Positions 7,651 to 53,773 of a stretch of DNA of 64,000 bases are shown here, piece by piece. Made by a program: the position numbers and the translations under genes. Source of the DNA: an uncultured Nitrospirales bacterium (GTDB lineage Bacteria; UBA10199; JADGCS01); assembly GCA_964609965.1 (NCBI GenBank), contig CAZSTS010000003.1:67260-131259 (forward strand), in the 5' to 3' direction. The stretch's first letter is position 1. Each line of letters starts with the position of its first letter. Under the pieces are notes generated by a model. The model saw only the letters and a list, made by a program, of their open reading frames with translations, made no database searches and was not told where the DNA came from.

Positions 7651-7653
7651 TTT

Positions 7654-8802: not shown

Positions 8803-8809
8803 ACAAATT

Positions 8810-9172: not shown

Positions 9173-9180
9173 TGATCTAT

Positions 9181-9214
9181 GGCTGTAAGCTGTGGGCTGT
9201 CGACTGTAAGCTAT
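9181..9214 (+). repeat. JUMPstart-like intergenic repeat module (GGCTGTAAGCTGTGGGCTGTCGACTGTAAGCT)
   Basis: GCTGTAAGCT occurs twice, plus the GTCGAC core. Confidence 0.5.
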
Positions 9215-9219
9215 AAAAT

Positions 9220-9708: not shown

Positions 9709-9733
9709 GCCTCAAGGCGCAAGGAGAAAAAAT

Positions 9734-11306: not shown

Positions 11307-11309
11307 TTT

Positions 11310-12416: not shown

Positions 12417-12430
12417 GCAAAATAAGAAGG

Positions 12431-20328: not shown

Positions 20329-21786
20329 ATGAAAGTTTCAATTATTTCACCCCCCAAACCTAAGCACTATCGAAGATACAGATGGTATTTACGTGAACAC
20401 AATTGTGCTCAAGTACGTGGAGACGTCACAAACCCCTGCTTGGCACTTTCTATTGTAAGCACTCTTAGTTTGAATCATGAGATTGAGATTGCGTTTCTTG
20501 ATTTGCAACTTGAGGAAGGAAAGCCTGAGCAAGTATTTGAAAAACATCTGACTTCTTTTCAGCCAGACCTTGTTATTGTTTTGATGAGTGCCTATGCCAT
20601 TCAAGAAGAAAGAATGTATGCCGAAAAGCATCCTCTTACGGTCTCTGTTATCACACCAACAAATGTGAATCCCAAAGAAGCGATTGAACAGTACAGTTTG
20701 AAGTGCCCCTATTTTACATTTGGGTACGCTGTTGAGCAGAGCCTTGCTAGCTGTGTTCAGCTTTTTTTGGAAGGTCATCGGGAATTTTCTATCCCTGGTA
20801 TTTTTAAGAATGGTTCAACTGAAAATAAAGCGGTTCCTTGTGGCGAAGTTCAAGCGCCGCTCATGACCGTTAAAGGGCATGAGATTATTCAAACTGGTAA
20901 ATACCTTCGAACGCAGACAAAAACCCCTGTTCTTTATCTTTTTACTCAGAAAGGGTGTTTGTTTCATTGCATTTATTGCACTGTCGGGTCTGACCAGTAT
21001 CGTCTTGTGAGCGGTAATGCAGAAAAACTTGTTTCTCAAATAGCGTGGTTAAAAGAAAACTACAAATTTGATCAGATTGTCTTTCTTGATGCTGACTTTA
21101 TTGCTGACAAGAAATTTTTTAACGCTTTTGTTGAGGCTATTGTCCCACAAAACCTTCAAATCAGTTATAGTGCAAATTGCACGATCAACACTCTTAATGA
21201 GGCGACCATAGAAGGTTTGCTGAGAAGTGGGTGCCAAGAAATTCGTATTGGTATTGAAACTGTGAACAAGGACCTTCTCAAGGTGCTCAGAAAATCGTAT
21301 CAAGTAGATCGTGCTCGCGATATTTTATCACAGGCAAGACAAAAAGGGCTCAATGTTCTTTTGTATTTTACAACAGGGATACCAGGGGAGAATAAGGCAC
21401 ATTTACTCGAAAACATACACTTTCTACTAGATACAGGGATCAAAAAATTCACGAATGGCAATTTGTTTCCTATTCCTTCAACTGATTTTTATGCAAAATT
21501 AAAGCAAGAAAACAATCTCATAGAAAGTGATTGGCGCCGTTATTATCTTGGCAAAACCCTCACATACAAAAATGGTTCAAACATGTCCCTGCGTCGCTTA
21601 AAGACAATGCAATATTGGATGAGGGCTATGTACTATTTTCAAAGATTAACAGGTAAATCAGAGTGGGGGACTCCTAAAACAAATGTTCTCAATATTTTGA
21701 GTGAGGTTTTTGCAATAGGATTAAAATATTTTTATGATATCGGATCAGCAGTTAAGTGGCGGATTCGTTTGCTGGTGAGAGTGTGA
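20329..21786 (+). CDS. B12-binding-domain radical SAM enzyme (class B rSAM, possible sugar C-methyltransferase)
   Basis: CLFHCIYC CX3CX2C motif. N-terminal cobalamin-binding-like domain. Confidence 0.7.
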   Translation: MKVSIISPPKPKHYRRYRWYLREHNCAQVRGDVTNPCLALSIVSTLSLNHEIEIAFLDLQLEEGKPEQVFEKHLTSFQPDLVIVLMSAYAIQEERMYAEKHPLTVSVITPTNVNPKEAIEQYSLKCPYFTFGYAVEQSLASCVQLFLEGHREFSIPGIFKNGSTENKAVPCGEVQAPLMTVKGHEIIQTGKYLRTQTKTPVLYLFTQKGCLFHCIYCTVGSDQYRLVSGNAEKLVSQIAWLKENYKFDQIVFLDADFIADKKFFNAFVEAIVPQNLQISYSANCTINTLNEATIEGLLRSGCQEIRIGIETVNKDLLKVLRKSYQVDRARDILSQARQKGLNVLLYFTTGIPGENKAHLLENIHFLLDTGIKKFTNGNLFPIPSTDFYAKLKQENNLIESDWRRYYLGKTLTYKNGSNMSLRRLKTMQYWMRAMYYFQRLTGKSEWGTPKTNVLNILSEVFAIGLKYFYDIGSAVKWRIRLLVRV

Positions 21787-32206: not shown

Positions 32207-33058
32207 ATGTGGCAAGGAACATATAAAATTTGGCAGAATAAGGAGTTTTGTAAGCTATATGCTCAGACATCTCATCGCCAACTTCACGAATGTGGCTATA
32301 CCAAGGTTTTAGTCTCTCAACAAAAGTACCTTGGGAATACCACGTTGTATCTTTATAATCCTCTTTCATCTGATTGGACTCTTCCAGTAGATTCATTGGC
32401 TAAAGAACTAGGTGTGGCGCGAGTTTGGGCTTACTTGACTCAGCCGTGTTTGGAAAAAGAAGCCTTTCTCAAGGAAGAATTCCATACCACATTGATTCCA
32501 CTCCACGAAGGAGAGGAAAAATTATGGAAAAGAGTAGGTGATAAGACTCGAAACATGGTCCGTAAGGGAAAAAAGGCAGGTGTTGAGGTGTCTCTTGCAG
32601 AAACTCAGGAGGATTTTGAAGGTTGGTGGGCTGTGTATCATCAGCTTACGCAGCAAATAGGCTTTCAGTCACAGAATTATGATTTTTGTAAAAAGCTTTT
32701 TGAAACACCCTCTTTGTCAAAACTATTTGTGGCTCGTCTTGGTTCAAAAATCATCGGAGGCTGTTTTTTTCTGACAGATGATTATCCCTTGTATTGGTTG
32801 GGTGCCTTTGATCGTGCCTATCAAAAAACCTCAGCTGGGCATGTGACGATGTGGGAAGCCATGCTTTATTTCATGTCTCATGGGTGTTCTCTTCTTGATT
32901 TAGGTGGTATTTCGGTTGGGGAAACAGACGGTCCCTCACGATTCAAGAAGAATTTTGGTGGCGATCTTCAGAAGGCCTATATTTATGAATGGCCTGTATC
33001 AAAAATGAAAAACTGTTTTTTGAAAGTGGCAAGTAAACTTCGAACTTTTGCTAAGTGA
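32207..33058 (+). CDS. FemAB-family / GNAT-fold acyl- or aminoacyl-transferase
   Basis: 283 aa. FemAB-like and BioF2-like acetyltransferase pattern (WWAVYHQLTQ..., FVARLGSKIIGGCFF, LYWLGAFD). The wider FemAB-deacetylase-GT-Wzy-sugar-transferase-Wzz-Wza context resembles PEP-CTERM/exosortase EPS loci. Confidence 0.45.
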   Translation: MWQGTYKIWQNKEFCKLYAQTSHRQLHECGYTKVLVSQQKYLGNTTLYLYNPLSSDWTLPVDSLAKELGVARVWAYLTQPCLEKEAFLKEEFHTTLIPLHEGEEKLWKRVGDKTRNMVRKGKKAGVEVSLAETQEDFEGWWAVYHQLTQQIGFQSQNYDFCKKLFETPSLSKLFVARLGSKIIGGCFFLTDDYPLYWLGAFDRAYQKTSAGHVTMWEAMLYFMSHGCSLLDLGGISVGETDGPSRFKKNFGGDLQKAYIYEWPVSKMKNCFLKVASKLRTFAK

Positions 33059-37554: not shown

Positions 37555-38706
37555 ATGAGATATTTGATCCAATTTATCACAAAAAGTTCTCTTAAGAGGT
37601 TCTTTTTGAGCAGACTTTTTTTTCTCTGTTTTACACTATTATTTGTGCTAACGGGTCTTCTTTCATGGTATTTTGATTATCATTACATCATCACAATTCA
37701 ATCAGTTATTGTTTTGTTTTCTATCATTCTTGCTGTGATCCTCGTTACCTGGACCGAAGAGTTTACCTCAATGCCAGCAGAGAGATTCATGAATGTATTA
37801 ACAGGATTCGGAACAAAAGGAGAGGATGCTGTTTTTGATGAGCAGGGTGTTCCTTTGGTGAGCCTTAGAAAAATTGGAGAAATACATTATAACCCTGTTC
37901 GTGTGGCCATGGCTGGGTTTGATTATTACGAAGAATGGAAAAAGTCAGGAGAAGAGAGCGTTATTCAAAAAATGTATCATTGCACAGATTCTCTGATGGA
38001 AAACATGTTGATGAAAAAGTCTGGTGATAAGTCTTTTGCAGTGTGGGAGTATCACTATCCATGGGCAGAGCTTTCTCCTCCATGGGTTTCAGGGTTGGCA
38101 CAAGGGGTTTGTGTTCAGCTTTTTTCGATTGCCTACGAGTGTTCAAAAAATACCAAGTATTTAGAGGCAGCACAAATGACATTCAATGCCTTTGCTGTTG
38201 AAGTGAAGGATGGAGGCGTGACTTATAAAGATAGCCCTGATGAATGGTGGTATGAAGAGTATGCCAAGGCTGGCTGTGTGGAAAGTCGTGTGCTAAATGG
38301 GATGATATATGCCCTGGCAGGTATTCATGATTATCAAAGAATATCAAAAGATTCTCTAGCTCAAGAAGCTTTTGATAGGGGTGTCAGGAGTTTATTAAAA
38401 AGATTAAATGATTTTGATACAGGGTGGTGGACTTACTATGATTCGTGTGGTCTCATTGCTTCAAAATCATATCACAAGGTTCATATTAATCAGATGGAAC
38501 AAATGTATGATTTAACTGGGATAGAGGAATTCAAAAAAACTGCTGTTCGTTGGAGAAAATATAAAGCACCATTTTTTATTCGTGAATTTATTAGGCAAAA
38601 GCCAGGCTGGCATGATTTGGTAGTGCTTTTTCTTAATATGGGATTTGTATTTATCGTGATCGAAGTCTTATATATTGCTTGGAAATATTTTTTATCATTC
38701 CATTAA
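37555..38706 (+). CDS. D-glucuronyl C5-epimerase-like protein (GLCE C-terminal-domain homolog) with N- and C-terminal TM anchors
   Basis: Motif series matches animal heparosan C5-epimerase as I recall it: PWVSGLAQG (WYSAMAQG), WYEEYAKAGCVESRVLNGMIYALAGIHD (WYEEYP...VLNGFMYSLIGLYD), HINQMEQ (HINQLQ), RWRKY (RWKSY). Confidence 0.6.
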   Translation: MRYLIQFITKSSLKRFFLSRLFFLCFTLLFVLTGLLSWYFDYHYIITIQSVIVLFSIILAVILVTWTEEFTSMPAERFMNVLTGFGTKGEDAVFDEQGVPLVSLRKIGEIHYNPVRVAMAGFDYYEEWKKSGEESVIQKMYHCTDSLMENMLMKKSGDKSFAVWEYHYPWAELSPPWVSGLAQGVCVQLFSIAYECSKNTKYLEAAQMTFNAFAVEVKDGGVTYKDSPDEWWYEEYAKAGCVESRVLNGMIYALAGIHDYQRISKDSLAQEAFDRGVRSLLKRLNDFDTGWWTYYDSCGLIASKSYHKVHINQMEQMYDLTGIEEFKKTAVRWRKYKAPFFIREFIRQKPGWHDLVVLFLNMGFVFIVIEVLYIAWKYFLSFH

Positions 38707-38712
38707 TTTTTT

Positions 38713-39837
38713 ATGACCAAAATTGTTCATCTCACATCAGTTCATCAGAGCTATGATGTCCGGGTGTTTCATAAGGAATGCGCCTCACTGTCAGCTGCAG
38801 GGTATAATGTAACTCTTGTGGCGCAGCACACTTCTGATGAAGTTGTTGATGGCATAAAAATAAGGTCTCTCTGTAAGCCCAAGAGCCGATTCGATCGAAT
38901 GATAAGAAGTCCTTTGAAGCTTTATGAAATAGCTATGGAGGAAAAGGGCTCTGTTTATCACTTTCATGATCCAGAGCTTATCCCGCTTGGGGTTTTTTTG
39001 AAGCTTCGAGGAAAAAAAGTTATCTATGATCTTCACGAAGACAGTCCAAGACAAGCGCTTCATAAACACTGGCTCAAGCCTTGGCTGCGCTACTTGGTAT
39101 CCTGGTTTCTTTCTGTTATAGAAAAAATAGGGTGTCTTTTTTTTGATGGGCTTATTGCAGCGACACCTCATATTGCAAAAAGGTTTTCGCAGAAAAAAAC
39201 GATTGTCGTTCAAAATTTTCCTCGAACAAAGGGTTTGAAACTTGAGTCAGAAACGCCATATCATGAAAGAGAGAATGTTGTAGTTTATATTGGCGGTTTG
39301 TCTCAGGAGAGAGGGATTCTAGAGCTCGTACACATGCTAGAAAAACTTCCAATAAGTTTGAAAGCGCGTCTTGAGCTTGCTGGAAACTTTTCGCCTGAAT
39401 CTTTTCAGAAAGATCTTTCTGAAAGGGATGGCTGGAAAAAAGTGTGTTATTTAGGATGGCAAAATCCATCTAAGATTAAATCTCTTTTGTCACGGGCACG
39501 CGTAGGGGCTGTTGTTTTGTATCCTACACCGGCTTATCAGGAAAGCTATCCTATTAAAATGTTTGAGTACATGGCAGCGGGATTGCCAGTGGTTGCTTCG
39601 GATTTTTCTTTATGGCAAGAGATTGTTTCGCAGGCAAATTGTGGCTTGTTAGTTGATCCAAAAGACCCAAAGAGTATTGCTAAGGCTGTTCAGTGGCTAT
39701 TAGACAATTCTAATGAAGCGCAAAAAATGGGAGAAGCTGGCATGAATGCGGTCAAGGAAAAATACAATTGGGAATTGGAAGAAAAAAAATTATTGGGCTT
39801 ATATAATAATCTTACAGGAAAAGTAGTTTCTACATGA
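38713..39837 (+). CDS. GT4 family glycosyltransferase
   Basis: EX7E region FEYMAAGLPVVASDFSLWQEIV. Confidence 0.75.
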   Translation: MTKIVHLTSVHQSYDVRVFHKECASLSAAGYNVTLVAQHTSDEVVDGIKIRSLCKPKSRFDRMIRSPLKLYEIAMEEKGSVYHFHDPELIPLGVFLKLRGKKVIYDLHEDSPRQALHKHWLKPWLRYLVSWFLSVIEKIGCLFFDGLIAATPHIAKRFSQKKTIVVQNFPRTKGLKLESETPYHERENVVVYIGGLSQERGILELVHMLEKLPISLKARLELAGNFSPESFQKDLSERDGWKKVCYLGWQNPSKIKSLLSRARVGAVVLYPTPAYQESYPIKMFEYMAAGLPVVASDFSLWQEIVSQANCGLLVDPKDPKSIAKAVQWLLDNSNEAQKMGEAGMNAVKEKYNWELEEKKLLGLYNNLTGKVVST

Positions 39838-40901
39838 TGACAGAAAAAACGGATTTTCATAAAGACCCTTTTGTCACTATTATTGTTCCTTGTTGTAATG
39901 AAGCGAAGTTCATTGAGTCATGTCTCGACTCCATTCTTGATCAAACTTATCCAAAAGATCGGTACGAAATACTTGTTGTGGATGGCATGAGTGAGGATGG
40001 CACACGTGAACTAGTCAAGAAATATTCAGAACGTTTTTCTTTGATTAAGCTTTTAGACAACGTGAACAAACGCACTCCATTTGCTTTCAACCTTGGAATA
40101 AAAAATGCACAAGGTGATGTGATTTTGATTATGGGAGCACATACCAGGTATTCTTCTAATTATATTTCTGTCATTGCTCATCACATCAAAGAAGGAAGGG
40201 CTGATTGCGTTGGTAGTGTTGCGGAAACAAGACCTGCTACAAAAGGTTTTTTTGCCCCATTTATTGTAACAAGTATTTCTTCTGCCTTTGGTGTAGGAAA
40301 TTCTTACATGAGAACAGGGATTAAAAAGCCGCGCTATGTTGATACGGCGAGTTGTCCAGGGTATGGACGTCATGTTTTTGAAAAAATAGGGTTTTTTAAT
40401 GAAAAGCTTCTTTATAGTCAGGATATTGAATTCAGTATGCGACTTAAAAAAGCGGGGCTGCGTTTTTTATGTGATCCCAGCATCACATCTTATTACTATG
40501 CTCGTTCAAATATAAAATCTTTTCTAAAACACAATTATCGCAATGGATTATGGACGATTCTTCCCTTTGCCTATAGTGATTTTGTTCCGATAACCTTAAG
40601 GCATGTTGTTCCTTTGGCCTTTGTTTTGAGTTTGCTCATATCTTTTGCAGGGGGGCTGTTTAGTAGTTATTCTTTTTATTTAGGGTTGCTGATCGCTATG
40701 CTTTATGCAAGTTGTACTTTGTTCTTTTCGGCCAAGGTTGCTATACAAAAAAAGAAATGGTGTTATGTATTCATTATGCCTGTTGTGTATGCACTGTTGC
40801 ATGTGAGTTATGGTCTTGGATCGTGTTTTGCTATTCCTCGATTATTAAAGAATAAAGTGTTTTGGAAAAAAATATTTAGAAGAAAGCAAAAGAAAAAATA
40901 G
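39834..40901 (+). CDS. GT2 family glycosyltransferase with C-terminal TM segments
   Basis: VTIIVPCCNEAKFIESCLDSILDQTY, DGMSEDGT (DxD-like). Confidence 0.8.
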   Translation: MMTEKTDFHKDPFVTIIVPCCNEAKFIESCLDSILDQTYPKDRYEILVVDGMSEDGTRELVKKYSERFSLIKLLDNVNKRTPFAFNLGIKNAQGDVILIMGAHTRYSSNYISVIAHHIKEGRADCVGSVAETRPATKGFFAPFIVTSISSAFGVGNSYMRTGIKKPRYVDTASCPGYGRHVFEKIGFFNEKLLYSQDIEFSMRLKKAGLRFLCDPSITSYYYARSNIKSFLKHNYRNGLWTILPFAYSDFVPITLRHVVPLAFVLSLLISFAGGLFSSYSFYLGLLIAMLYASCTLFFSAKVAIQKKKWCYVFIMPVVYALLHVSYGLGSCFAIPRLLKNKVFWKKIFRRKQKKK

Positions 40902-40916: not shown

Positions 40917-41696
40917 ATGAACAAAACAGACTATGTAGAGGTAACAGAAATCGCAGGAGAAGAAGTTTCGCAAGAACAGGTAGAGCGCATTTGTCATCGC
41001 TATTTATGGGCTCAAGGCTATAGTGAAGACAAAGATGTGATTGAAGTGGCCTGTGGATCTGGGCAGGGCTTGGGTTGTTTGTCTCGTGTTGCTAACAATG
41101 TGGTTGCTGGTGATTATTCTGATGATGTTCTCAGCACAGCACGTTCACATTATCAAGATCGTATTAAACTGATACGATTTGATGCACAAGAAATGCCTTT
41201 TGAGGATGCTTCCTTTGATGTGATCATTAATTTTGAAGCCATATATTATCTGTCAGATGCAGAAAGGTTTATTAAAGAATGCACTCGGGTTCTCAGGCCT
41301 GGGGGAAAGGTGTTGATCGCTACTGCCAATAAAGATCTCTTTGATTTTAATCCCAGCCCCCATAGTTATACTTATTATGGTGTAAAAGAGCTCGATTCTT
41401 TATTGAGGCAATATGGATTTGTGAATTCCTTTTTTGGTGTTGTTGACACTTCGAGAGTTTCATTAAAGCAAAAAGTTTTTCGGCCAATAAAGAAAGTTGT
41501 TGTGGCCTCGGGCCTCATGCCAAAAACAATGAAGGGAAAGAAGCTTCTTAAAAGATTTGTGTTTGGCAAACTCATCAAGATGCCTGCAGAAATTGATGAA
41601 AAAATGATTTCATATCAGCCGCCAACTGAAATCAGTTCTGAAACACCTGATACAAAGCATAAAGTGATCTACTGTGCAGCGGCACTCAAAAAATAG
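40917..41696 (+). CDS. class I SAM-dependent methyltransferase
   Basis: VIEVACGSGQG motif I. Methyltransf_11-like. Confidence 0.7.
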   Translation: MNKTDYVEVTEIAGEEVSQEQVERICHRYLWAQGYSEDKDVIEVACGSGQGLGCLSRVANNVVAGDYSDDVLSTARSHYQDRIKLIRFDAQEMPFEDASFDVIINFEAIYYLSDAERFIKECTRVLRPGGKVLIATANKDLFDFNPSPHSYTYYGVKELDSLLRQYGFVNSFFGVVDTSRVSLKQKVFRPIKKVVVASGLMPKTMKGKKLLKRFVFGKLIKMPAEIDEKMISYQPPTEISSETPDTKHKVIYCAAALKK

Positions 41697-41728
41697 AGCA
41701 CATAAGAATATTTTTGTTTGGAGAAATT

Positions 41729-42364
41729 ATGATAAAAAGAGTTTTTGATCTCATGTTGTCATTATTTGGTTTGATTGTCATGAGTCCTTGTCTTCTCTTT
41801 TTTGCGGTTGCCATTAAAGTGGACAGCCCAGGTCCTATCTTTTATCGTGGGCTTCGTGTGGGCAGAGGCGGAAAAACATTTCGTATTTTTAAGTTTCGAA
41901 GCATGGTGGTTGATGCAGAAAAATCAGGGGTGACGTCAACGAGTGGACAAGACGATCGCGTGACAAGAATGGGAAAGCTCATCCGTAAGTTCAAAATGGA
42001 TGAATTTGCGCAGCTGATTAATGTCTTTCTTGGTGATATGAGTCTTGTGGGACCTCGTCCTGAGGTACAAAAATTTGTTGATCAATACACCGAAGAAGAA
42101 AGGCAAATCTTAAGCATGAGACCTGGTATTACTGATTGGGCTTCTATCAAGTTTCATAATGAAGGAGATATTATTGAAGCCTCTGGTATTTCAGATGCAG
42201 ATGAGGCCTATGCCAAACTTATCAGACCAGAGAAATTACGCTTACAATTAAAGTATATAAGAGAGCGTAGCCTCTGGATAGATATTAAAATCATTCTTGC
42301 AACCCTATCGACAATTATTGTAACAAGGGTGGACGCTAAATCCGTGAGCGTCCCGGAGACCTAA
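41729..42364 (+). CDS. undecaprenyl-phosphate sugar phosphotransferase (bacterial sugar transferase, PglC/WbaP C-terminal-like; initiating enzyme)
   Basis: KRVFDLMLSLFGLIVMSP, PGPIFYRGLRVGRGGKTFRIFKFRSM, DMSLVGPRP motifs. GGAG RBS. Confidence 0.85.
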   Translation: MIKRVFDLMLSLFGLIVMSPCLLFFAVAIKVDSPGPIFYRGLRVGRGGKTFRIFKFRSMVVDAEKSGVTSTSGQDDRVTRMGKLIRKFKMDEFAQLINVFLGDMSLVGPRPEVQKFVDQYTEEERQILSMRPGITDWASIKFHNEGDIIEASGISDADEAYAKLIRPEKLRLQLKYIRERSLWIDIKIILATLSTIIVTRVDAKSVSVPET

Positions 42365-42386: not shown

Positions 42387-43493
42387 ATGAAAGTACCATT
42401 TTTTAATTATCCACATTTATTTGAGAGTGAAAAAGAAGGCCTTATTGACGTGATAAAAGATGTTGGGGGGCGTGGCGCTTTTATCATGCAAAAAGATATG
42501 GAGATTTTTGAGAAGGAGCTGACTGAATACACAGGAGCTAAGTATGCTGTGGGAGTGGCTAATGCCACAGATGGAATGCAAATGGCTCTAATGGCTGGTG
42601 GTATTGGAGACGGTGATGAAGTGATTATTAGCTCACACACCATGGTGGCTACAGCTAGTGCTGTGCATTTTTCTGGGGCAACGCCTGTACCTGTTGAGGC
42701 AGGGCCTGATCACATGATGGATCCAGCGTCTATTGAAAAAGCTATCACATCCAAAACAAAGGTGATTTTGCCTACGCAGCTTAATGGACGTACCTGTAAT
42801 ATGGATGCTATTTCTAAGATTGCTGATAAAAATGGTTTGCAAATATTCGAAGATGCAGCTCAAGCCCTTGGGTCAAAATATAAAGGAAAATGCGCAGGAA
42901 CATTTGGTCGTGGTGCTTGTATTAGTTTTTATCCCGCAAAAGTTTTAGGTTGTTTAGGGGATGCAGGGGCTGTGCTCACAAATGATGAAAAGGTTTACTA
43001 TAATCTCATCAGGCTCAGAGATCATGGTCGCGGTGCTGATGGCGAAATTACAATGTGGGGCTTCAATAGTCGGCTTGATAATTTGCAGGCTGCCATTCTT
43101 TCATACAATTTCAAAAAATACCCGCAAATAGTAGAACGAAGACGTGAAATTGCTGGCATGTATCAAGAGCAGCTTGGTAGCCTTAAAGAACTTGTTCTTC
43201 CTCCTGCGCCGCTAGATAATTCTGATCACTTTGATGTGTATCAAAACTATGAAATAGAAACCCCGCGTCGCGATGAATTACAGGCTTATTTAGCTGAACG
43301 TGGTATTGGAACATTGGTTCAATGGGGAGGCACTGCGATTCATCAGTTTAAGAGTTTGGGATTTCAGCAACATCTTCCTCAAACAGATAGATTATTTGAG
43401 CGCATGCTCATGATTCCTATGAATATGTCATTAACAAATGAGCAAGTTATCACCGTTTGTGATACTATAAAGAGTTTCTACCGTGACAAATAA
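42387..43493 (+). CDS. DegT/DnrJ/EryC1 PLP-dependent sugar aminotransferase (PglE-like)
   Basis: DegT fold (SFYPAKVLGCLGDAGAVLTND). Confidence 0.75.
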   Translation: MKVPFFNYPHLFESEKEGLIDVIKDVGGRGAFIMQKDMEIFEKELTEYTGAKYAVGVANATDGMQMALMAGGIGDGDEVIISSHTMVATASAVHFSGATPVPVEAGPDHMMDPASIEKAITSKTKVILPTQLNGRTCNMDAISKIADKNGLQIFEDAAQALGSKYKGKCAGTFGRGACISFYPAKVLGCLGDAGAVLTNDEKVYYNLIRLRDHGRGADGEITMWGFNSRLDNLQAAILSYNFKKYPQIVERRREIAGMYQEQLGSLKELVLPPAPLDNSDHFDVYQNYEIETPRRDELQAYLAERGIGTLVQWGGTAIHQFKSLGFQQHLPQTDRLFERMLMIPMNMSLTNEQVITVCDTIKSFYRDK

Positions 43494-44472
43494 AAACAAA
43501 CAAATCATCGACCTCTATCGCATGATGCTTCGGATCCGGATGTGTGAAGAGAGCCTTGTTGCCCCTATAGAGAAGCGAGAAATTCTCTGTCCAGCTCATC
43601 TTTATACAGGAGAAGAGGCTGTTGCTACTGGCGTGTGTGCACACCTAAATCACTCAGACACGATTTTTAGTAATCACCGTTCGCACGGACATTATTTAGC
43701 CAAAGGTGGTGATTTTAAGAAAATTATCGCTGAGATTTATTGTAAAGAAAATGGGTGTTCGCGAGGTCGTGGTGGTTCCATGCATGTCTATGATACGTCT
43801 GTTGGCATGATGGGATCAGCTCCTATTGTCGCGGGAACGATTTCTTTGGCTCTTGGTTCAGCACTGGCTTCTCGTATTAGAAAAGACAACTGCGTTTCTG
43901 TCACTTTTTTAGGTGATGGAGCCACAGGAGAGGGTGTTTTATATGAATCTCTTAATTTTGCAGCCTTAAAAAATCTTCCTGTGATTTTTGTTTGCGAAAA
44001 CAATTATTATTCTACACATCTTCATATTTCAGAAATTCGAGTGAGTGATCAGATTTATAAGGTGGCAGAACCTTTTGGTGTGAAGACACATCGAGTTGAT
44101 GGCAATGATGTTCTTGCTGTCAGCAAGATTGCAGAGGAAGCTGTCTCTCTTTGTCGCGAAGGAAAAGGCCCTGTTTTTATCGAAGCACTCACTTATAGAA
44201 TGCGAGGGCATGTGGGTCCTGATGACAACATTCAGGGAACGCACACAGATATTCGACCAAAAGAAGAAATAGAACAGTGGAGAGAAAAAGACCCCATTTC
44301 TCGTTTAGAAAAACATATTTTTGCTCATGATATTTGTTCGCAATCCTACTTAGATGACATCAAGGAATGCTTGCAAAAAGAAATAGATGAGGCTCACGAA
44401 GAAGCGCGATCAAGTGTGTTTCCAGATGAAAAAGAGATAAACCAATATGTGTTCAGAAAAGAAGAATCGTAA
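43483..44472 (+). CDS. TPP-dependent dehydrogenase E1 component alpha subunit (pyruvate/acetoin dehydrogenase E1-alpha family)
   Basis: LYRMMLRIRMCEE, GDGATGEG TPP motif, NNYYSTHL. GTG start assumed. Confidence 0.75.
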   Translation: MTNKNKQIIDLYRMMLRIRMCEESLVAPIEKREILCPAHLYTGEEAVATGVCAHLNHSDTIFSNHRSHGHYLAKGGDFKKIIAEIYCKENGCSRGRGGSMHVYDTSVGMMGSAPIVAGTISLALGSALASRIRKDNCVSVTFLGDGATGEGVLYESLNFAALKNLPVIFVCENNYYSTHLHISEIRVSDQIYKVAEPFGVKTHRVDGNDVLAVSKIAEEAVSLCREGKGPVFIEALTYRMRGHVGPDDNIQGTHTDIRPKEEIEQWREKDPISRLEKHIFAHDICSQSYLDDIKECLQKEIDEAHEEARSSVFPDEKEINQYVFRKEES

Positions 44473-45439
44473 ATTGACCTATGGGTTGGCTATTAATGAA
44501 GCCTTTCATCAAATGATGGAAAAGGACCCTTCAGTTGTTTTGATTGGCCAGGGCGTCAAGAGTCCTTGGTATGTCGGAGACACAGCTTTAGGGCTTATTG
44601 ATAGGTTTACTGAAGAGCGTGTGATTGATACACCTGTCTCAGAAAATGCCATGACTGGTGCCGCTGTTGGCGCTGCCATAGTTGGCATGCGGCCTATTGT
44701 GGTTCACCCTCGTTGTGATTTTATGATGTACGCTTTGGACCCTATCATTAATGAGGCAGCTAATTGGTATTACATGAGTGGTGGTTGCAGTTCAGTGCCC
44801 GCTGTTTTTTGGGGAGTTATTAATAGAGGAGGTGAGCAAGCAGCACAACATTCACAAGCGATTCATGCTTTTTTTGCGCATACACCAGGCTTAAAAGTGG
44901 TTATGCCTGCAACACCCTATGATGCTAAAGGGCTCATGATTTCTGCTATTCTAGATGATAATCCAGTGGTTTTTATAGATGATCGTTGGTTGTATCGTCT
45001 AGAAGACGAGGTTCCTAAGGATTTTTATTCTATTCCTATTGGTCAAGGCATTGTTCATCGAACGGGAAAAGATGTTTCTATTATTGCCGTATCCTACATG
45101 GTTCAAGAGGCACTTAAAGCTGCTGATGAACTGGAAAAAGAGGGCGTGTCTGTTGAAGTCCTTGATCCTAGAACCATTAAACCTTTGGATGAGGGCCTTA
45201 TTCTTGATTCTGTCAAAAAAACAGGTCGTGTTATTGTTGCAGATGTTGGTTGGCAAAGCTTTGGTGTTGCCGCCGAAATCAGCTCTCTTATTTCTGAAAA
45301 GGCTTTTTCTCATCTCAAGGGTCCTGTCAAAAGAGTGGCTCTTCCAGATATCCCTGCGCCGGCAAGTCGTACGTTAGAAAAAGCTTATTATCCAAGAGCC
45401 CCCCACCTCATTTCAGCAGTCAAAGAAATCATTTCATAG
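44447..45439 (+). CDS. TPP-dependent dehydrogenase E1 component beta subunit (transketolase-like)
   Basis: LTYGLAINEAFHQMMEKDP N-terminus, pyrimidine-binding and C-terminal transketolase domains. Start overlaps the alpha stop. Confidence 0.75.
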   Translation: MCSEKKNRKLTYGLAINEAFHQMMEKDPSVVLIGQGVKSPWYVGDTALGLIDRFTEERVIDTPVSENAMTGAAVGAAIVGMRPIVVHPRCDFMMYALDPIINEAANWYYMSGGCSSVPAVFWGVINRGGEQAAQHSQAIHAFFAHTPGLKVVMPATPYDAKGLMISAILDDNPVVFIDDRWLYRLEDEVPKDFYSIPIGQGIVHRTGKDVSIIAVSYMVQEALKAADELEKEGVSVEVLDPRTIKPLDEGLILDSVKKTGRVIVADVGWQSFGVAAEISSLISEKAFSHLKGPVKRVALPDIPAPASRTLEKAYYPRAPHLISAVKEIIS

Positions 45440-45604: not shown

Positions 45605-46720
45605 ATGAATAATAAAAACCAATTACAGACAAATAGCGTCGTCAATTTTTTAGAATACTGGGGTATTATTAGAAAAAATATCGTCATGATTGTTTCCATA
45701 GTTGTTGTGATATCTCTATTAGCCGTCATTATCAGTCTCAACTTAACAAAGACCTATAAATCTGAATCAACTATTGTCCCCACAGGATCTGGAGGCATGG
45801 GCGGCCGCTTATCTTCTTTGGCAGGTGGCTTGGGTAGCCTGCTTTCTTTGCCGGGGCTTGGTTCATCTACAAATGCTAAATTATTGGTTTCCATTCTAAA
45901 AAGTCGCACGATTGCCTCAAATGTGATCGAAAAAGTTGATTTGATGCCCTTGTTTTATGAAGAAATACCAAAAGATTTTCCTGAAGAAAAAAAGTCTACA
46001 GATCAAAGATATTTACTAAGATTTGAACAAGCCATCACTCTCATGAAAAAGACAGTGGCCATAGATTATAATTTAAAAAATGATACCATAGCTGTGACAG
46101 CAATTATGGAAGATCCTGAAGTGGCAGCGAAGGTTGTTAATATGTACATTAGTGAATTACAGCTGTTTTTGGAAACGCAAGCTGTGTCATCAGCAAAGCG
46201 GCATAGGATTTTTCTGGAAAACCAAGTTTTCAATGTGAAAAGAGAGATTTTAGAGACAGGCAATATGGTAGATCAGTTTTATAAAAATAATCAGGTCTCA
46301 GTTCCTTATCTTAGCATCGATGTGGGATTGATTTCAAAAGGCCAGCAGGGGGATTACAAAAAAAGTGTAGATGATCTCATGTCAGAAAAAGAATTAAGTG
46401 CAAAAAAACTCAGAGATGCAAAGCGTGTAAAAGATGTTTCACCAAGAATCTATTTTGAGTATTTGGTGTTACACTATAGATTGTTAATGGAATTGCAAGC
46501 TATGCTCACAACTCAGTATGAAATGGCAAAGATTCAGGAATCTAAGGAAGAGATTTCATTTAATATCCTTGATTCTGGGGTCCCTTCGATTCAGAGACAT
46601 TCACCCAGACGAGGATTTATCTGTGTCATTTCGTTTTTTCTTGCCTGTGCCCTTGCTGTTTTCATAGCCTTTTTTAGGGAATATATTCATCGTATGAAGT
46701 CTTTGGAAGCAGATAAATAA
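45605..46720 (+). CDS. wzz: polysaccharide chain-length determinant / co-polymerase (Wzz, PCP family)
   Basis: N-terminal and C-terminal TM segments, Wzz domain (IDLMPLFYE..., RRGFICVISFFLACALAVFIAF), coiled-coil middle. Confidence 0.7.
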   Translation: MNNKNQLQTNSVVNFLEYWGIIRKNIVMIVSIVVVISLLAVIISLNLTKTYKSESTIVPTGSGGMGGRLSSLAGGLGSLLSLPGLGSSTNAKLLVSILKSRTIASNVIEKVDLMPLFYEEIPKDFPEEKKSTDQRYLLRFEQAITLMKKTVAIDYNLKNDTIAVTAIMEDPEVAAKVVNMYISELQLFLETQAVSSAKRHRIFLENQVFNVKREILETGNMVDQFYKNNQVSVPYLSIDVGLISKGQQGDYKKSVDDLMSEKELSAKKLRDAKRVKDVSPRIYFEYLVLHYRLLMELQAMLTTQYEMAKIQESKEEISFNILDSGVPSIQRHSPRRGFICVISFFLACALAVFIAFFREYIHRMKSLEADK

Positions 46721-46729
46721 GGTTTTTTT

Positions 46730-48613
46730 ATGAAAAAACGCTTTTTACAATTTATAGGATTTACTGATAATATTGTTCGGCACAAGAGCGTTCGCACTCT
46801 TCTCATCTTTGCAGCTTTTTCCTGTTTGATCATAGCGAATCTTTTTGTTTCGGATTTTCTAATTGATCCCAAAAAATTTGTATTTTCCAAACAGCTTGGT
46901 CTTATCGTGATATTATCACAGCTTATGTTTGCGTATGTCTTTAGACTCAATCGTGGCATGTGGAAGTATTCGAGTATTTCTGATTTAGGATTGATCTTTA
47001 AAACAGCTGCTGTGAGTTTTGCTTTTAATCTCGTTCTCGATGTTTTGGTTGTTGGTAATGGTCAAATTGTGAGAGCCTTATTTGTTAACCACATGTTTTT
47101 TATTCTAAACTTTGGTGGGCTGAGGCTGTTAATCAGATTGTACCGAAATGTTGGGCCTGTACAGGTTGACCTCAAAAGGGTGCTCATTGTTGGGGCAGGT
47201 GATGGAGGAGATATTGCTTGTCGTCGACTAAGAAAAGAGCGGAACCAATATAAGGTTGTGGGATTTTTGGATGATGATCCTTTAAAAAAGAATCATGATA
47301 TTCATGGGATTAAAGTTATTGGTACAACGAGTAATATTTTGAATGTGATCAATACTCATGAAGTAAGCGAGGTTGTCATTGCGATTCCTTCGGCTGGACC
47401 AGCTCTTATTAGAAATTTGGCTGAAAAGTGTTTTGGGGCAAAGGCTCAAGTAAAAATCATGCCAAGGCTTTCTGAAATTTCGGAAGATGATGCCACTTTT
47501 GAAATAAGAAACCTTAAATTAGAAGACTTGTTAGCCAGAGAGCCAATCATAGAAGATTTATCTCCAGTGCGTAACACCTATCATAAGAAGCGGGTCATGA
47601 TCACAGGTGCTGCTGGTTCAATTGGCGAAGAACTTGTTAGGCAGGTAGCTCAAATGAGGCCAGAGGTTGTTTGCCTAGTTGATCAGGCAGAATCACCACT
47701 TTATTTCCTGTTTCGTGAATGTGAGGCAAAGTTTCCGGATGTTCTCTTTGTTCCTACGCTTTGTGATATCACAGACCCATTGGCCATAAACCGTGTTTTT
47801 GAAGAATCTCATCCACAGATTGTTTTGCATGCGGCAGCCTATAAACATGTACCTCTTTTAGAAGACAACCTCTATCAAGCTGTGAGTGTGAATGTTGAAG
47901 GCACGATGCGCCTCGCAGAACTATCAAAAAAACATAAGGTGGAACGTTTTGTATTTATTTCTACGGATAAAGCGGTTAATCCAACTAACATTTTAGGTGT
48001 GACAAAGAGGATGGCAGAATTATTGTGCAAGGTTTTTCAAGAAGAATTTTCTCAAACAAAGTTTATTGCTGTTCGTTTTGGCAATGTGATTGGTAGTCAG
48101 GGTAGCGTTATACCTCTTTTTTCAAAACAGATTGAACAAGGTGGTCCTGTTACGGTGACACATCCTGAGATTAAACGCTATTTTATGATGATCCCAGAGG
48201 CTGTTCAGCTTGTTTTGTTTGCTTCTGTTCTCGGGGCAGGAGGTGAAATTTTCGTCCTTGATATGGGAAAACAAATTAAGATTCTTGATTTAGCCACAAA
48301 TATGATACGTATATGTGGTCTTGAGCCAGATAAAGACATCAGGATTGAGTTTTGTAAACTCAGACCGGGCGAAAAGCTTTATGAAGAGCTCTATGATGAA
48401 ACAGAGAAGGTTTGCTCTACAAAACATCCAAAAATTAATATGGCGATTGGCCACGCAACAAGTAGTCAAGATTCTTTGCCCAAAATCGAGGAATTTATTT
48501 CTTTAGTAAAAAAAGGATACAATAAGGAACAATTGCATGATTTATTAATTGAATTAGTTCCTACATATCAATCCGATAATTCTCAGAAAGAAAAATTTGC
48601 AGTTAATGCGTAA
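46730..48613 (+). CDS. polysaccharide biosynthesis protein CapD/WbpM/PglF-like (membrane-anchored UDP-GlcNAc 4,6-dehydratase)
   Basis: 627 aa. N-terminal TM segments, two Rossmann domains (VLIVGAGDGG; VMITGAAGSIGEEL), YKHV (YxxxK). Confidence 0.8.
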   Translation: MKKRFLQFIGFTDNIVRHKSVRTLLIFAAFSCLIIANLFVSDFLIDPKKFVFSKQLGLIVILSQLMFAYVFRLNRGMWKYSSISDLGLIFKTAAVSFAFNLVLDVLVVGNGQIVRALFVNHMFFILNFGGLRLLIRLYRNVGPVQVDLKRVLIVGAGDGGDIACRRLRKERNQYKVVGFLDDDPLKKNHDIHGIKVIGTTSNILNVINTHEVSEVVIAIPSAGPALIRNLAEKCFGAKAQVKIMPRLSEISEDDATFEIRNLKLEDLLAREPIIEDLSPVRNTYHKKRVMITGAAGSIGEELVRQVAQMRPEVVCLVDQAESPLYFLFRECEAKFPDVLFVPTLCDITDPLAINRVFEESHPQIVLHAAAYKHVPLLEDNLYQAVSVNVEGTMRLAELSKKHKVERFVFISTDKAVNPTNILGVTKRMAELLCKVFQEEFSQTKFIAVRFGNVIGSQGSVIPLFSKQIEQGGPVTVTHPEIKRYFMMIPEAVQLVLFASVLGAGGEIFVLDMGKQIKILDLATNMIRICGLEPDKDIRIEFCKLRPGEKLYEELYDETEKVCSTKHPKINMAIGHATSSQDSLPKIEEFISLVKKGYNKEQLHDLLIELVPTYQSDNSQKEKFAVNA

Positions 48614-49750: not shown

Positions 49751-50251
49751 TTATTCCGAGTCAAAATCATCAAATCTTTTTAATGACACTGTCACTTCTT
49801 CTTCTGATATACTTGTGTTATCATCGCTGCATGTAGCATTGGTTGTAGCGTAAAGCGCTGTGTCAGCAGAATCGCCTTTTTTATAGACTACATTGCTTGA
49901 GCAATAATAATTGCTAGTGGCGGCGTCATCGTCAGTGCCACAGGTTACTGATGTGTAATCAGCAGCGCTGTCGGTCGTTGTTCTATCTGTACAGCCAAGG
50001 GTGGTAAGGCCGTCCGTTGTTGAAGAGATAGAGGGTGAGGGAGCGTTACAGGCATTTCCGTAGATGATAGTAGTGACATCACCGCTTGTTGTTGTCCCAC
50101 TTGATTCAGAACAAGAGCTGCCTGCGCCTCCTCCTTCATCTTCATCGAGATTTACACCCGAAGAACCGCAGCCCATCATAGCAATGCCAAATTGAATCGA
50201 AAAAAATACAATGAAGAGAAACGAGGAAAAATAGAGAATTTTTTTTATCAT
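49751..50251 (-). CDS. acidic Cys/Ser/Thr/Asp-rich lipoprotein (lipobox AMMGC), function unknown
   Basis: Signal peptide plus lipobox. Seven Cys. Low-complexity T/S/D-rich composition. GAGG RBS before the ATG. Confidence 0.5.
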   Translation of the reverse strand: MIKKILYFSSFLFIVFFSIQFGIAMMGCGSSGVNLDEDEGGGAGSSCSESSGTTTSGDVTTIIYGNACNAPSPSISSTTDGLTTLGCTDRTTTDSAADYTSVTCGTDDDAATSNYYCSSNVVYKKGDSADTALYATTNATCSDDNTSISEEEVTVSLKRFDDFDSE

Positions 50252-50338
50252 CTTATGCCTCAAGTTTTGGTTAAGGGTATAGATTTATTTTTTCGGGTTT
50301 GCAATGAAATGATTTTTTATCTAGCATGCCCTGAACGA

Positions 50339-51532: not shown

Positions 51533-53146
51533 ATGTCTATCGCCTTTTATCTTAGGAAGAGAACTATGATTATGCTTTCTAGATGGTTAAAAAAGTTTGT
51601 TGGAGCAAAGATTTCTTTGCTTGTCACGGCATCGCTAGTATTTGTTGTGGCTGTTGCGCTGGTGGTTATCAGTCAGTTTTCCCCTCAGTTTCTTACATCT
51701 CAAAACTTTATTACATTGACCTTATTGTTTGCTGTTTTTTTTATTTTCTTTCAGATTGCGTTGGTTGTTTTGGCTATTGGTATTTTTATTACCAAACCTT
51801 TACAAAAAGTTATTTTTTCTATGAAAAGGGTGGGTGAAGGCTCTTTGATGGAGAAGTGTGATCTCAAATCTTCTGATGAATTTGGTGAGCTCAGTGAATG
51901 TTTTAATAAGATGATTTCTAGCAGTCATCAGATCAATGATAGTCGCCAACAGATTGAAAAAAAACTGCTCATAGCTGAGGAGGGATTAAAATATAAGAGG
52001 GAGCTTGAAGAAAAGGCAAAGATTATTGAACGAATGAATGTTGAGCTTTCGGGTGCTTTTAGCGACATTTCATTATTATATACTGTTTCGCAGTATTTAA
52101 GTTCTGTTTTAGAAGTTGATGAACTTGTTTTTAAGGTAAAAAAAATATTTGAAGAAAAATTTAAGTGCAATAGTTTTGCGCTCTATTTTATTGTTCACGA
52201 CAGTAATAAAATAAAGCTAGCAGCACAGAAAGGGCTTTGTGATGATATAAAAGAAACAGAGCAATTATTTGATCTTCACAAGGGTATAGCCGGAAAAACC
52301 ATCAAGTATAATCGTAGTTTTTATATCAATGATTTAGAGGTTCTAAAAAACAGGACGCTCCTAAGTCCCGAGAGGCATTTCAAAGGGGCTATTTTATCAA
52401 TACCCTTAAGAGTGCGGGGTACGGTGATTGGGGTCCTTACTGTTTGTCGTCATCAGATTAACAGTTTTCCTTCTACAGATAGGCAGTCTCTTGAATCTAT
52501 GGCCAATCAAATTGCAGTGGTCTTTGATAGGGCTCAATTACACACAAAAACTAAAGAGCTTTCTGTTCGAGATGAATTAACTGGGGCTTATAATCGACGT
52601 CATTTTTATCAGGTCTTTCGCAGAGAACTCAAAAGAGCTAAGCGTTTTCAGAGACCCGTTTCTTTGCTCATGATTGATATGGATCATTTTAAACAGTTTA
52701 ATGATTCACATGGTCATATTAAGGGTGATGCTTTATTGAAGGAATTTGTCTTATTGTTAAAGCGTAACATCAGGGAGATTGATGTTTTGGCACGCTTTGG
52801 AGGTGAGGAGTTTGTGTTATTGTTGGCTGACACGAGAATGAGTGATGCTATTACAGTTGCTAATAAACTACGTGAATTAGTCAAAACATATAACTGGGGT
52901 GAAGCTTTGACTGTTGTGGGTGATGGCCACACAAGTATTGATCCCATCACCATAAGCATTGGCGTATCAGCTTATCCAGAATGTGGTTTTACACAGGGAG
53001 AGCTTATTAAGAAAGCAGATGTGGCTTTGTATAAGGCCAAAAAAGATGGTCGTGATTTAGTAAGAACTTTTCAGATGTGTGAAGTTTATCTTGAAGAGAT
53101 GAAAAAGTCTGATACTCAATTTAATCAAGTGCTCCCGAGCGCTTGA
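51533..53146 (+). CDS. diguanylate cyclase: TM-HAMP-GAF-GGDEF
   Basis: RFGGEEF active site, GAF region, two N-terminal TM segments. The start could also be ATG 51566. Confidence 0.8.
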   Translation: MSIAFYLRKRTMIMLSRWLKKFVGAKISLLVTASLVFVVAVALVVISQFSPQFLTSQNFITLTLLFAVFFIFFQIALVVLAIGIFITKPLQKVIFSMKRVGEGSLMEKCDLKSSDEFGELSECFNKMISSSHQINDSRQQIEKKLLIAEEGLKYKRELEEKAKIIERMNVELSGAFSDISLLYTVSQYLSSVLEVDELVFKVKKIFEEKFKCNSFALYFIVHDSNKIKLAAQKGLCDDIKETEQLFDLHKGIAGKTIKYNRSFYINDLEVLKNRTLLSPERHFKGAILSIPLRVRGTVIGVLTVCRHQINSFPSTDRQSLESMANQIAVVFDRAQLHTKTKELSVRDELTGAYNRRHFYQVFRRELKRAKRFQRPVSLLMIDMDHFKQFNDSHGHIKGDALLKEFVLLLKRNIREIDVLARFGGEEFVLLLADTRMSDAITVANKLRELVKTYNWGEALTVVGDGHTSIDPITISIGVSAYPECGFTQGELIKKADVALYKAKKDGRDLVRTFQMCEVYLEEMKKSDTQFNQVLPSA

Positions 53147-53281: not shown

Positions 53282-53305
53282 TACGCTACGACAAGGAGGG
53301 ATGTG

Positions 53306-53773
53306 ATGAATTTTAAATATATATTAGATGAAGCCATCAATCGTGGTGAAAAAATCAAACAAGAAGTTATTGCAGAGATTCTCAAATCTAAAACCATTCA
53401 AGAAATTGTCATGAATAAGAACTTTGTAAAAGCAGTAACGAGGCTCATCGAAACAAAAGAAGAGGTCAAAAAAGTCATCAACAAACAAGTCAAAACAATT
53501 TTTGATATGATGGATGTTCCCACACAACGCGATCTTCTTAAAATTGGAAAGAAATTAACGAAGCTTGAATCCATTCTTAACAGGGTAGGACGTAAGACAA
53601 TCCCTGTGAAATCACTCAAAAAAACCAAATCTTCAACCAAGCGTAAAAAGACTATCAAAAAAACTAAAAAACTGACTTCCAAATCAAAAAAACGGCCAGT
53701 AAAGAAGAAAACAGCTCCCAGAAAGAAGACAAAAAAGATAGTGCGTAAAACTGCGAAAAAGAGGAAGAAATAA
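53306..53773 (+). CDS. PhaF-like polyhydroxyalkanoate granule-associated protein (phasin) with histone-H1-like lysine-rich C-terminal tail
   Basis: N-terminal phasin domain (LIETKEEVKKVINKQVKTIFDMMDVPTQRDLLKIGKKLTKLESIL). C-terminal K/T/R-rich tail. AGGAGGG RBS. Confidence 0.6.
   Translation: MNFKYILDEAINRGEKIKQEVIAEILKSKTIQEIVMNKNFVKAVTRLIETKEEVKKVINKQVKTIFDMMDVPTQRDLLKIGKKLTKLESILNRVGRKTIPVKSLKKTKSSTKRKKTIKKTKKLTSKSKKRPVKKKTAPRKKTKKIVRKTAKKRKK

Follow-up and report, generated by a model that had tools for sequence, protein, structure and literature searches.

An E2-less E1-type enzyme pair in a recurrent surface-glycan cassette of uncultured bacteria: a candidate carboligase for branched sugars

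Introduction

In actinomycete specialized metabolism, a group of E1-type enzymes named alphaKADH2 installs a C2 branch from pyruvate on keto-sugars, and one of them, KbDH-alpha/beta, carries out carboligation on ketone sugar analogues in vitro (PMC12247030). For the E1 alpha/beta pairs AviB1/B2 and Pau11/Pau12, the proposed role is to place an acetyl branch from pyruvate at C-4; the aldo-keto reductase (AKR) Pau7 reduces this branch to hydroxyethyl (PMC4753412). The branch ketone can later be reduced, methylated, oxidized or transaminated (the last in kibdelomycin), and AcoAB (Ao:DCPIP OR) also ligates onto ketones in vitro (PMC12247030). Here we examine the genes for the alpha and beta subunits of a thiamine diphosphate (ThDP)-dependent E1 enzyme, together E1ab, in a stretch of 64,000 nucleotides from an uncultured Nitrospirales bacterium (contig CAZSTS010000003.1, positions 67,260 to 131,259 of the forward strand), called the window below. 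Like AviB1/B2 (avilamycin), Pau11/12 (paulomycin), AlmDI/DII (aldgamycin) and KbDH (kibdelomycin), this is a two-subunit E1 encoded with no E2 or E3; unlike those pairs, which serve actinomycete specialized metabolites (presumably TDP-deoxysugars joined to an aglycone), it is accompanied by a UDP-N-acetylhexosamine (UDP-HexNAc)-type dehydratase and a small phosphoglycosyl transferase (PGT), so that its product would be a first sugar linked to undecaprenyl diphosphate. We favor, with moderate confidence, the reading that E1ab is an E2-independent ThDP carboligase that branches a UDP-4-keto-6-deoxy-HexNAc, after which a DegT-family aminotransferase aminates the branch, a methyltransferase decorates it and the PGT loads the sugar onto its carrier.

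For envelope sugars, a 2025 review names YerE-like enzymes and describes alphaKADH2 enzymes as "mainly" belonging to specialized metabolites. We found nothing relevant in the searchable literature on E1 or pyruvate dehydrogenase (PDH) genes in O-antigen or capsule clusters, with an earlier description of some clusters being possible. About 120 alphaKADH2 clusters are reportedly listed in a 2024 genome-mining study by Krug et al. Antibiotic pathways already provide examples of this class of mechanism; we did not find its proposed use in a UDP-HexNAc/PGT cassette for an initiating sugar, or its breadth in uncultured phyla, in the searchable literature.

An E1 pair without E2 in a glycan cluster

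The window carries one plus-strand polysaccharide cluster from about 4 to 50 kb, within which the pair is encoded as follows.

43483-44472, plus strand: E1 alpha, ThDP-dependent, of an E2-less glycan clade; 329 aa, GTG start; PF00676 (E1_dh) E=6.6e-73
44447-45439, plus strand: E1 beta of the same clade; 330 aa; PF02779 (Transket_pyr) 5e-33, PF02780 (Transketolase_C) 2e-39

The original prediction, made from the window alone, had placed an E1 pair here, and both open reading frames (ORFs) are intact in the ORF list at the coordinates given beforehand and carry E1 Pfam domains. The gene overlaps it had noted measure 26 nt between alpha and beta (44447-44472) and 11 nt between alpha and the upstream DegT aminotransferase gene (43483-43493). 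A Shine-Dalgarno-like AAAGAG lies 5' of the start of each subunit gene, and the alpha/beta overlap recurs in homologous loci. Homologues of alpha are 326 aa long and share its N-terminus (consensus MxxxKxxLxxLYR); this agreement in length and N-terminal consensus supports the GTG start. The closest PDB relatives are human PDH E1alpha (1.2e-49) and E1beta (6e-69). Alpha nevertheless scores under the PDH E1alpha equivalog cut-offs (TIGR03182, 310 bits vs 394; TIGR03181, 217 vs 411), and beta is over the NF006667 subfamily cut-off (334 vs 321) but under NF008854 (308 vs 454). A second ThDP enzyme of the window, a full-length Dxs at 1935-3770 just upstream of the cluster, is housekeeping and unrelated; weak DXP_synthase_N matches of E1 alpha reflect the fold shared with Dxs and nothing more.

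To place the pair we used 80 loci from a scan of species-representative genomes, with neighbors identified by tblastn synteny and ORF clustering; the clade discussed below comprises the 46 loci whose E1 alpha is at least 48% identical to that of the window. A tblastn search with seven E2 sequences gave zero matches in the entire window, and with the same queries E2-like sequence was absent from all 52 related loci (~738 kb in all). No E3-like ORF was noticed in the window ORF lists, in a search for E3 that was not exhaustive. More distant relatives behave differently: tblastn detected an E2-like sequence in the locus of 21 of 30, and in 14-15 of the 30 Pfam placed E2s with lipoyl, E3-binding and 2-oxoacid_dh domains no more than two genes downstream of E1 beta. 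Relatives of 45% identity or less mostly adjoin an E2 and fall on the opposite side of the tree. In this tree (neighbor-joining, concatenated alpha and beta), the midpoint root has every E2-linked locus on the same side and the glycan-cassette loci on the other; each locus with PGT/DegT/PglF context falls into a single clade, which a small E2-less sister group adjoins.

A housekeeping PDH or AcoAB is rejected on the gene context, the side of the tree and the alpha scores under equivalog cut-offs. From these sequence comparisons we judge that the pair is unlikely to be a housekeeping PDH. The original prediction had pointed the same way, describing an E1 without E2 or E3 partners, and we found neither adjacent E2/E3 genes nor a placement within housekeeping PDH when we looked for both.

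Conserved catalytic residues and remodeled loops

The catalytic apparatus is retained in every clade member: alpha H65, R66, D145, N173, N174 and H243 and beta E66, F92 and H135 are invariant in 46/46 of the aligned sequences. Alpha carries the ThDP/Mg2+ motif GDGA at 144-147, then N173/N174, and alpha His243, the cofactor-activating beta Glu66 and beta His135 are all present. In fold, domain order, GDGA...NN motif, beta Glu and the two catalytic His, the pair is like PdhAB and AcoAB (human PDH E1, 1NI4; Geobacillus stearothermophilus, 1W85); it is unlike them in having no E2 in the locus, in forming its own clade, in its alpha scores and in the loops at the active-site entrance, which are remodeled.

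In alpha, a loop specific to the clade reads GHVGPDDNIQGTHxDIRP, with an insertion of 3-5 residues, and further clade-specific features are T178/H179, R186, G245 and the QG[TS]H insertion. Beta has ~29 clade-specific positions, including Q35-G36, H87-P88-R89, N106-W107, N126-R127, G129-E130-Q131 and R180-W181; at Q35-G36 the E2-linked relatives have E-D (21/21), and N126-R127-x-G129-E130-Q131 sits directly before the catalytic His. Several of the clade-specific invariant residues are new arginines. We take the alpha stretches to be the counterparts of the two phosphorylation loops in human E1alpha, and the beta stretch presumably corresponds to the loop ahead of the catalytic His. Such a pattern would fit an acceptor site that has changed and a decarboxylation chemistry that has not.

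A cassette shared by at least 15 phyla

Homologues of E1 alpha number in the thousands; the best 120 clusters share 60-81% identity, have a length of ~326 aa and are of metagenomic origin throughout. The same neighbors were seen in a Parcubacteria contig, a Nitrospirota contig and a 704-kb contig, and the ~46 related loci, which come from at least 15 phyla and almost all from metagenome-assembled genomes (MAGs), have a common cassette. Its order is [glycosyltransferase]-methyltransferase-small PGT-E1 alpha-E1 beta-DegT-(class I aminotransferase)-PglF-like dehydratase. Hosts include Patescibacteria, Saccharibacteria, Nitrospirota, Desulfobacterota, Omnitrophota, Bacteroidota, Planctomycetota, Verrucomicrobiota, Elusimicrobiota, Acidobacteriota, Calditrichota, Margulisbacteria and one Methanomassiliicoccales archaeon, with E1 alpha identities of 48-68%; this high identity across phyla suggests that the cassette spread horizontally as a unit. 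The original prediction had called such a gene pair uncommon for O-antigen or capsule pathways, which holds for studied organisms but not for uncultured ones, where it is widespread. Among the 46 clade loci, the partner genes occur as follows.

Small PGT, usually immediately upstream: 40/46, the gene most tightly linked to E1ab
DegT aminotransferase: 32/46
Class I S-adenosylmethionine (SAM)-dependent methyltransferase, three sub-families: ~31/46
PglF-like dehydratase within 8 kb of E1ab: 22/46
Family 2 or family 4 glycosyltransferase (GT2 or GT4): common

Neighbor clustering over these loci revealed no conserved acyltransferase family. Gene content, synteny, separation from E2-linked E1s and retention of catalytic residues are direct observations.

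In the window, the genes around E1ab, all on the plus strand, are the following.

39834..40901, plus strand: GT2 glycosyltransferase with a C-terminal membrane segment; PF00535 E=3.6e-26
40917..41696, plus strand: class I SAM-dependent methyltransferase, 259 aa; PF08241/PF13649, under all NCBIfam cut-offs
41714..42364, plus strand: small monotopic PGT of PglC size, 216 aa; PF02397 (Bac_transf) E=1.3e-60, PDB PglC 8e37 E=1.7e-24
42387..43493, plus strand: cassette-specific DegT-family pyridoxal phosphate-dependent aminotransferase; PF01041 E=1.5e-92
45605..46720, plus strand: Wzz-type chain-length determinant; PF02706 E=4.9e-9
46730..48613, plus strand: PglF/CapD-type membrane-anchored UDP-HexNAc 4,6-dehydratase; PF02719 E=1.5e-107 and PF13727
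48597..49745, plus strand: SLBB-domain polysaccharide export protein, Wza-like, the last gene of the cluster; PF22461, PF10531

This arrangement bears out the earlier description of a glycan operon with an aminotransferase upstream of the pair and Wzz downstream. The intergenic gaps from methyltransferase to PGT to DegT are 17-22 nt, and 165 nt separate E1 beta from the Wzz gene. A promoter and terminator scan of 39.5-50.5 kb gave nothing above shuffled expectation, and no transcript boundary can be read in the 165-nt gap. The Wzz gene stands outside the conserved cassette, since it is not kept next to E1ab in related loci. The ORF cluster of the GT2 occurs in 14 related loci, mostly just upstream of the methyltransferase and PGT genes, and this enzyme is a likely second-step transferase. 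Methyltransferase homologues of the same length are found in the cassettes in three ORF clusters (MT7, 15 loci; MT9, 13; MT16, 3); the enzyme would O-, N- or C-methylate the modified sugar. The PglF-like enzyme would supply the 4-keto-6-deoxy acceptor.

The aminotransferase had been called PglE-like, a label that the comparison does not support: the protein is under every NCBIfam equivalog cut-off (TIGR03588 PseC, 195 bits vs 423), and among solved structures DesV, QdtB and WbpE come nearest to it, with PglE and PseC less close. The DegTs adjoining E1ab form their own clade, apart from other DegTs of the same loci and from the two others of the window, and by sequence they appear to be a dedicated clade co-inherited with E1ab. 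No PglD-type N-acetyltransferase was found between 39.8 and 49.7 kb, nor is one conserved in the 46 related cassettes; the hexapeptide transferases encoded at 9220-10690 are part of a WbpB/E/D-like module at a distance of 30 kb.

Variants of the cassette and a sister group

The cassette comes in three variants: with DegT only, as in the window; with DegT and a class I/II aminotransferase (19 loci); and with an AKR in place of DegT (4 loci). In the last of these, an AKR gene (PF00248, E=6e-67) lies between PGT and E1 alpha and DegT is absent (loci L021, at 7007-7993, L022, L029 and L036). These four loci are scattered within the E1 clade of the tree, so the swap of aminotransferase and reductase occurred more than once. 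Their AKRs most resemble methylglyoxal and glyceraldehyde-3-phosphate reductases. That an AKR and a DegT can replace each other is our key argument. The two enzymes most simply act on the same carbonyl. With ring C-4 as this shared carbonyl, both variants would leave E1ab lacking an acceptor; with a branch carbonyl, each conserved gene would have a role.

The class I/II aminotransferase (PF00155) lies beside DegT in its 19 cassettes (for example L005:5639-6811, L007:11122-12279 and L033:11088-12239) and is not found in the window. Its best NCBIfam models are PRK07550 or PRK08912 (methionine-aminotransferase-like), and it occurs in correlation with one subtype of DegT. Possible roles are to provide the 2-oxo-acid donor or to couple Ala to pyruvate and Glu.

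The E2-less sister group is also found among sugar genes (L045, L052, L053, L055, L058, L075 and L090), its contexts overall comprising NDP-sugar dehydratase, short-chain dehydrogenase/reductase (SDR), kinase, NUDIX, nucleotidyltransferase, B12-radical-SAM and DegT genes. In L052 an NDP-sugar 4,6-dehydratase gene lies directly upstream of E1ab and an SDR gene downstream; other loci carry B12-radical-SAM and GT2 genes. One member is cultured: plasmid pDMC1 of Solidesulfovibrio magneticus RS-1 (L090, NC_012797.1, 4097-16990), with the order GT2, GT2, radical SAM, NUDIX, kinase, E1 alpha, E1 beta, GDP-fucose-synthase-like, DegT, epimerase/dehydratase, nucleotidyltransferase. Its E1ab, encoded by DMR_RS21995/22000, is closest to that of L052 (alpha 50%, beta 58%), its beta is 51% identical to that of the window, and it offers an experimental handle. 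The plasmid match of best identity, pSALBX2 of Streptomyces albogriseolus (49% over 80% of alpha), was uninformative: its neighbors are transporters, a sigma factor and an acyl-CoA dehydrogenase, with no sugar genes.

Proposed pathway and its alternatives

In the reading we favor, the PglF-like dehydratase would convert UDP-GlcNAc to UDP-2-acetamido-2,6-dideoxy-hexos-4-ulose, and E1ab would decarboxylate a 2-oxo acid, most likely pyruvate, to a hydroxyethyl-ThDP carbanion. Without E2, an E1 makes a hydroxyalkyl-ThDP carbanion whose only fates, with no oxidant, are protonation and addition to a carbonyl. Here the carbanion would add to the C-4 ketone to give a 4-C-acetyl tertiary alcohol. The cassette DegT would then turn the branch ketone into a 1-aminoethyl group, and in the four variant loci the AKR would reduce it to 1-hydroxyethyl. 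The methyltransferase would decorate the branched product, and the small PglC-like PGT would move the sugar phosphate onto undecaprenyl phosphate. E1ab, as an enzyme of the alphaKADH2 type, would be part of a mobile cassette of five to six genes whose product is the lipid-linked sugar that initiates a surface glycan. From the gene content we infer which acceptor and donor are used, with what regiochemistry and in what order the steps follow.

The comparison with alphaKADH2 clusters extends beyond E1ab. They also have an adjoining NDP-sugar 4,6-dehydratase (here the PglF-like gene at 46730-48613) and a ketone-processing neighbor (the AKR Pau7, the kibdelomycin transaminase), sometimes with methylation, to which DegT or AKR and the methyltransferase would correspond here; by analogy, these enzymes of the cassette probably act on the branch. 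Their hosts are Actinomycetota, unlike those of the cassette, which belong mostly to uncultured non-actinobacterial phyla.

The original prediction had offered a C-branched sugar as one option, and the gene logic of the cassette together with the AKR variants favors it. It had likened the chemistry to that of YerE. YerE and ErwE, which belong to the pathways of yersiniose and erwiniose in lipopolysaccharide O-antigens, do serve the biological purpose proposed here: they add an acyl anion derived from pyruvate or another 2-oxo acid to a 4-keto-6-deoxy nucleotide sugar of a surface glycan, and reduction follows. However, YerE is a single-chain, flavin-binding enzyme of the TPP_enzyme_N/M/C decarboxylase superfamily with CDP-3,6-dideoxy sugars as acceptors, whereas our pair has E1_dh and Transket_pyr/Transketolase_C on two chains; the resemblance is one of mechanism and not of family, and the E1-type alphaKADH2 enzymes are the closer analogue.

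Several points weigh against the branched-sugar reading. First, DegT enzymes usually aminate ring ketones, and a DegT that took the C-4 ketone would leave E1ab with no obvious acceptor. Second, only 22 of the 46 loci, many of them on truncated contigs, have a PglF-like gene within reach. Third, the likeness to AviB1/B2, Pau11/12, AlmDI/DII and KbDH is one of gene content and published descriptions rather than of sequences, and the tree is a simple neighbor-joining tree with a midpoint root and no support values. Fourth, E2 and E3 could be encoded elsewhere in the genome. Fifth, the class I aminotransferase of 19 loci has no assigned role in the scheme and could hint at an unusual 2-oxo acid donor. 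Finally, we know of no glycan with a 4-C-(1-aminoethyl)-HexNAc.

The alternative that fares best, although we regard it as unlikely, is that DegT makes a 4-amino-4,6-dideoxy-HexNAc and that E1ab replaces PglD by delivering to N-4 an acetyl, hydroxyethyl or acyl unit that stems from pyruvate or another 2-oxo acid. The cassette does resemble the bacillosamine and 2-acetamido-4-amino-2,4,6-trideoxygalactose (AATGal) modules (PglF-PglE-PglD-PglC; WcfR/WcfS) in clustering a PglF-type dehydratase, a DegT and a monotopic PGT of ~200 aa; its PGT-DegT-E1ab-PglF order recalls pglC/E/F, and it has no PglD-like acyltransferase for which E1ab might stand in. Small PglC-type PGTs classically take N-4-substituted or 4-amino trideoxy-HexNAc, which fits as well, and the class I aminotransferase of the 19 loci could provide a special 2-oxo acid. 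But the modules also differ in the presence here of E1ab and a methyltransferase and in an aminotransferase that is closer to DesV, QdtB and WbpE than to PglE/PseC and that an AKR can replace. The four AKR loci keep E1ab although they have no aminotransferase and hence no amine. Moreover, the carbanion is a nucleophile, and to become an acyl donor it would need a two-electron acceptor (lipoamide, flavin, Fe-S), none of which the cassette encodes, and the N-acylation or N-alkylation reading has no reductase to call on either; we know of no precedent for E1-catalyzed N-acylation of a sugar. The transfer of an acetyl or hydroxyethyl unit to an amino sugar, which the original prediction had raised, is therefore disfavored.

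E1ab might instead make a small non-sugar product, such as an acyloin or an aldehyde that is reduced by the AKR or aminated, with the sugar an ordinary 4-amino or 4-hydroxy 6-deoxy-HexNAc. The resemblance of the variant-locus AKRs to reductases of small carbonyls speaks for this, as do the action of class I aminotransferases on amino and 2-oxo acids and the ability of acetoin-type E1s to ligate small aldehydes and ketones. Against it, no transferase in the cassette could attach the substituent, E1ab is linked most tightly to the PGT and to the dehydratase that forms the keto-sugar, and in the sister clade its immediate neighbors are an NDP-sugar 4,6-dehydratase and an SDR; we consider this quite improbable.

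That E1ab is an ordinary PDH or acetoin dehydrogenase E1 with a remote E2/E3, co-regulated in the operon to provide acetyl-CoA for glycan N- or O-acetylations, has in its favor the PDH E1 subunits as best PDB and NCBIfam matches, the beta score over the NF006667 cut-off and the retained catalytic His residues of lipoamide acylation, but is very improbable given an alpha under both PDH E1alpha equivalog cut-offs, a clade apart from all E2-linked E1s with no E2 in 53 loci, invariant remodeled loops at the mouth of the active site and occurrence of the cassette in at least 15 phyla, among them Patescibacteria and Saccharibacteria with their reduced genomes.

A phosphonate pathway (phosphonopyruvate decarboxylase with 2-aminoethylphosphonate transaminase) was also considered and rejected, because the architecture is E1-type and not TPP_enzyme_N/C. 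There was no phosphoenolpyruvate mutase among the cassette families scanned with Pfam, a scan that left out several smaller or singleton neighbors.

Other features of the window

The cluster contains further sugar-modifying genes at 6626-18810. A WbpB/WbpE/WbpD-like module consists of a GFO oxidoreductase (6626-7576), a DegT (7654-8733) and a hexapeptide transferase (9220-9708), and is followed by an LpxD-like hexapeptide protein (9629-10690); the same region encodes a PIG-L deacetylase, a UDP-GlcNAc 2-epimerase-like protein and an AsnB-like amidotransferase (14477-16408), and two formyltransferase-like genes flank a WbmS-like gene at 16260-18810. From this gene set the cluster probably makes at least two further modified amino sugars. 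A 120-aa ORF (8810-9172) separates the DegT gene of the module from its hexapeptide transferase gene; we take this ORF to resemble the "four-helix-bundle / 23S rRNA intervening-sequence protein" family.

A FemAB/GNAT-like protein (32207-33058; PF13480, PF02388) is encoded inside the glycan cluster and outside the conserved cassette. This protein might attach an amino acid or an acyl group to a free amine on a sugar, perhaps the amine of the aminoethyl branch. At 37555-38706 a D-glucuronyl C5-epimerase C-terminal domain (PF06662, 1.5e-46) follows an N-terminal membrane segment, and a radical SAM protein is encoded at 20329-21786; both are unusual for bacterial O-antigen or exopolysaccharide loci.

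Directly after the cluster, the only sizeable minus-strand ORF of the region (49751-50263) specifies a protein of 170 aa. It has a signal peptide and a lipobox-like Cys (...AMMGCGSS...), beyond which the sequence is very rich in Ser, Thr, Asp, Gly and Cys. It is possibly a lipoprotein or a glycosylation substrate. Farther on, between a gene for a GGDEF-type protein (51533-53146) and the tuf/ribosomal-protein region, a 156-aa protein (53303-53773) has a C-terminal third of nearly pure Lys, Thr and Arg, a histone-H1-like tail. By its EF-Tu the organism falls close to uncultured "Deltaproteobacteria" MAGs, with 86-88% identity.

Implications

Taken further, and more tentatively than the pathway itself, the methyltransferase-PGT-E1ab-DegT/AKR-PglF cassette may define a new family of eight-carbon, C-4-branched (1-aminoethyl or 1-hydroxyethyl) 6-deoxy-HexNAc sugars that serve as lipid-linked initiating residues of surface glycans in many uncultured phyla, including Patescibacteria, and in at least one archaeon. 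An E1-type carboligase would then have been recruited to primary envelope biogenesis and spread horizontally as part of a unit.

If this is true, E1-type ThDP carboligases, until now tied to actinomycete antibiotic deoxysugars, would also be widespread in envelope glycan synthesis, and it would become testable whether glycans of lineages that cannot be cultured have, as predicted, a novel branched amino-octose as their reducing-end sugar. The finding would bear on glycan chemistry, on the substrate specificity of PGTs and on the annotation of thousands of "pyruvate dehydrogenase E1" genes, and the enzymes would be new biocatalysts for forming tertiary alcohols on UDP-sugars. Metabolic reconstructions from MAGs would be corrected, especially those of reduced-genome Patescibacteria, where counting such genes toward PDH or acetoin dehydrogenase would falsely credit the organism with a capacity for pyruvate oxidation.

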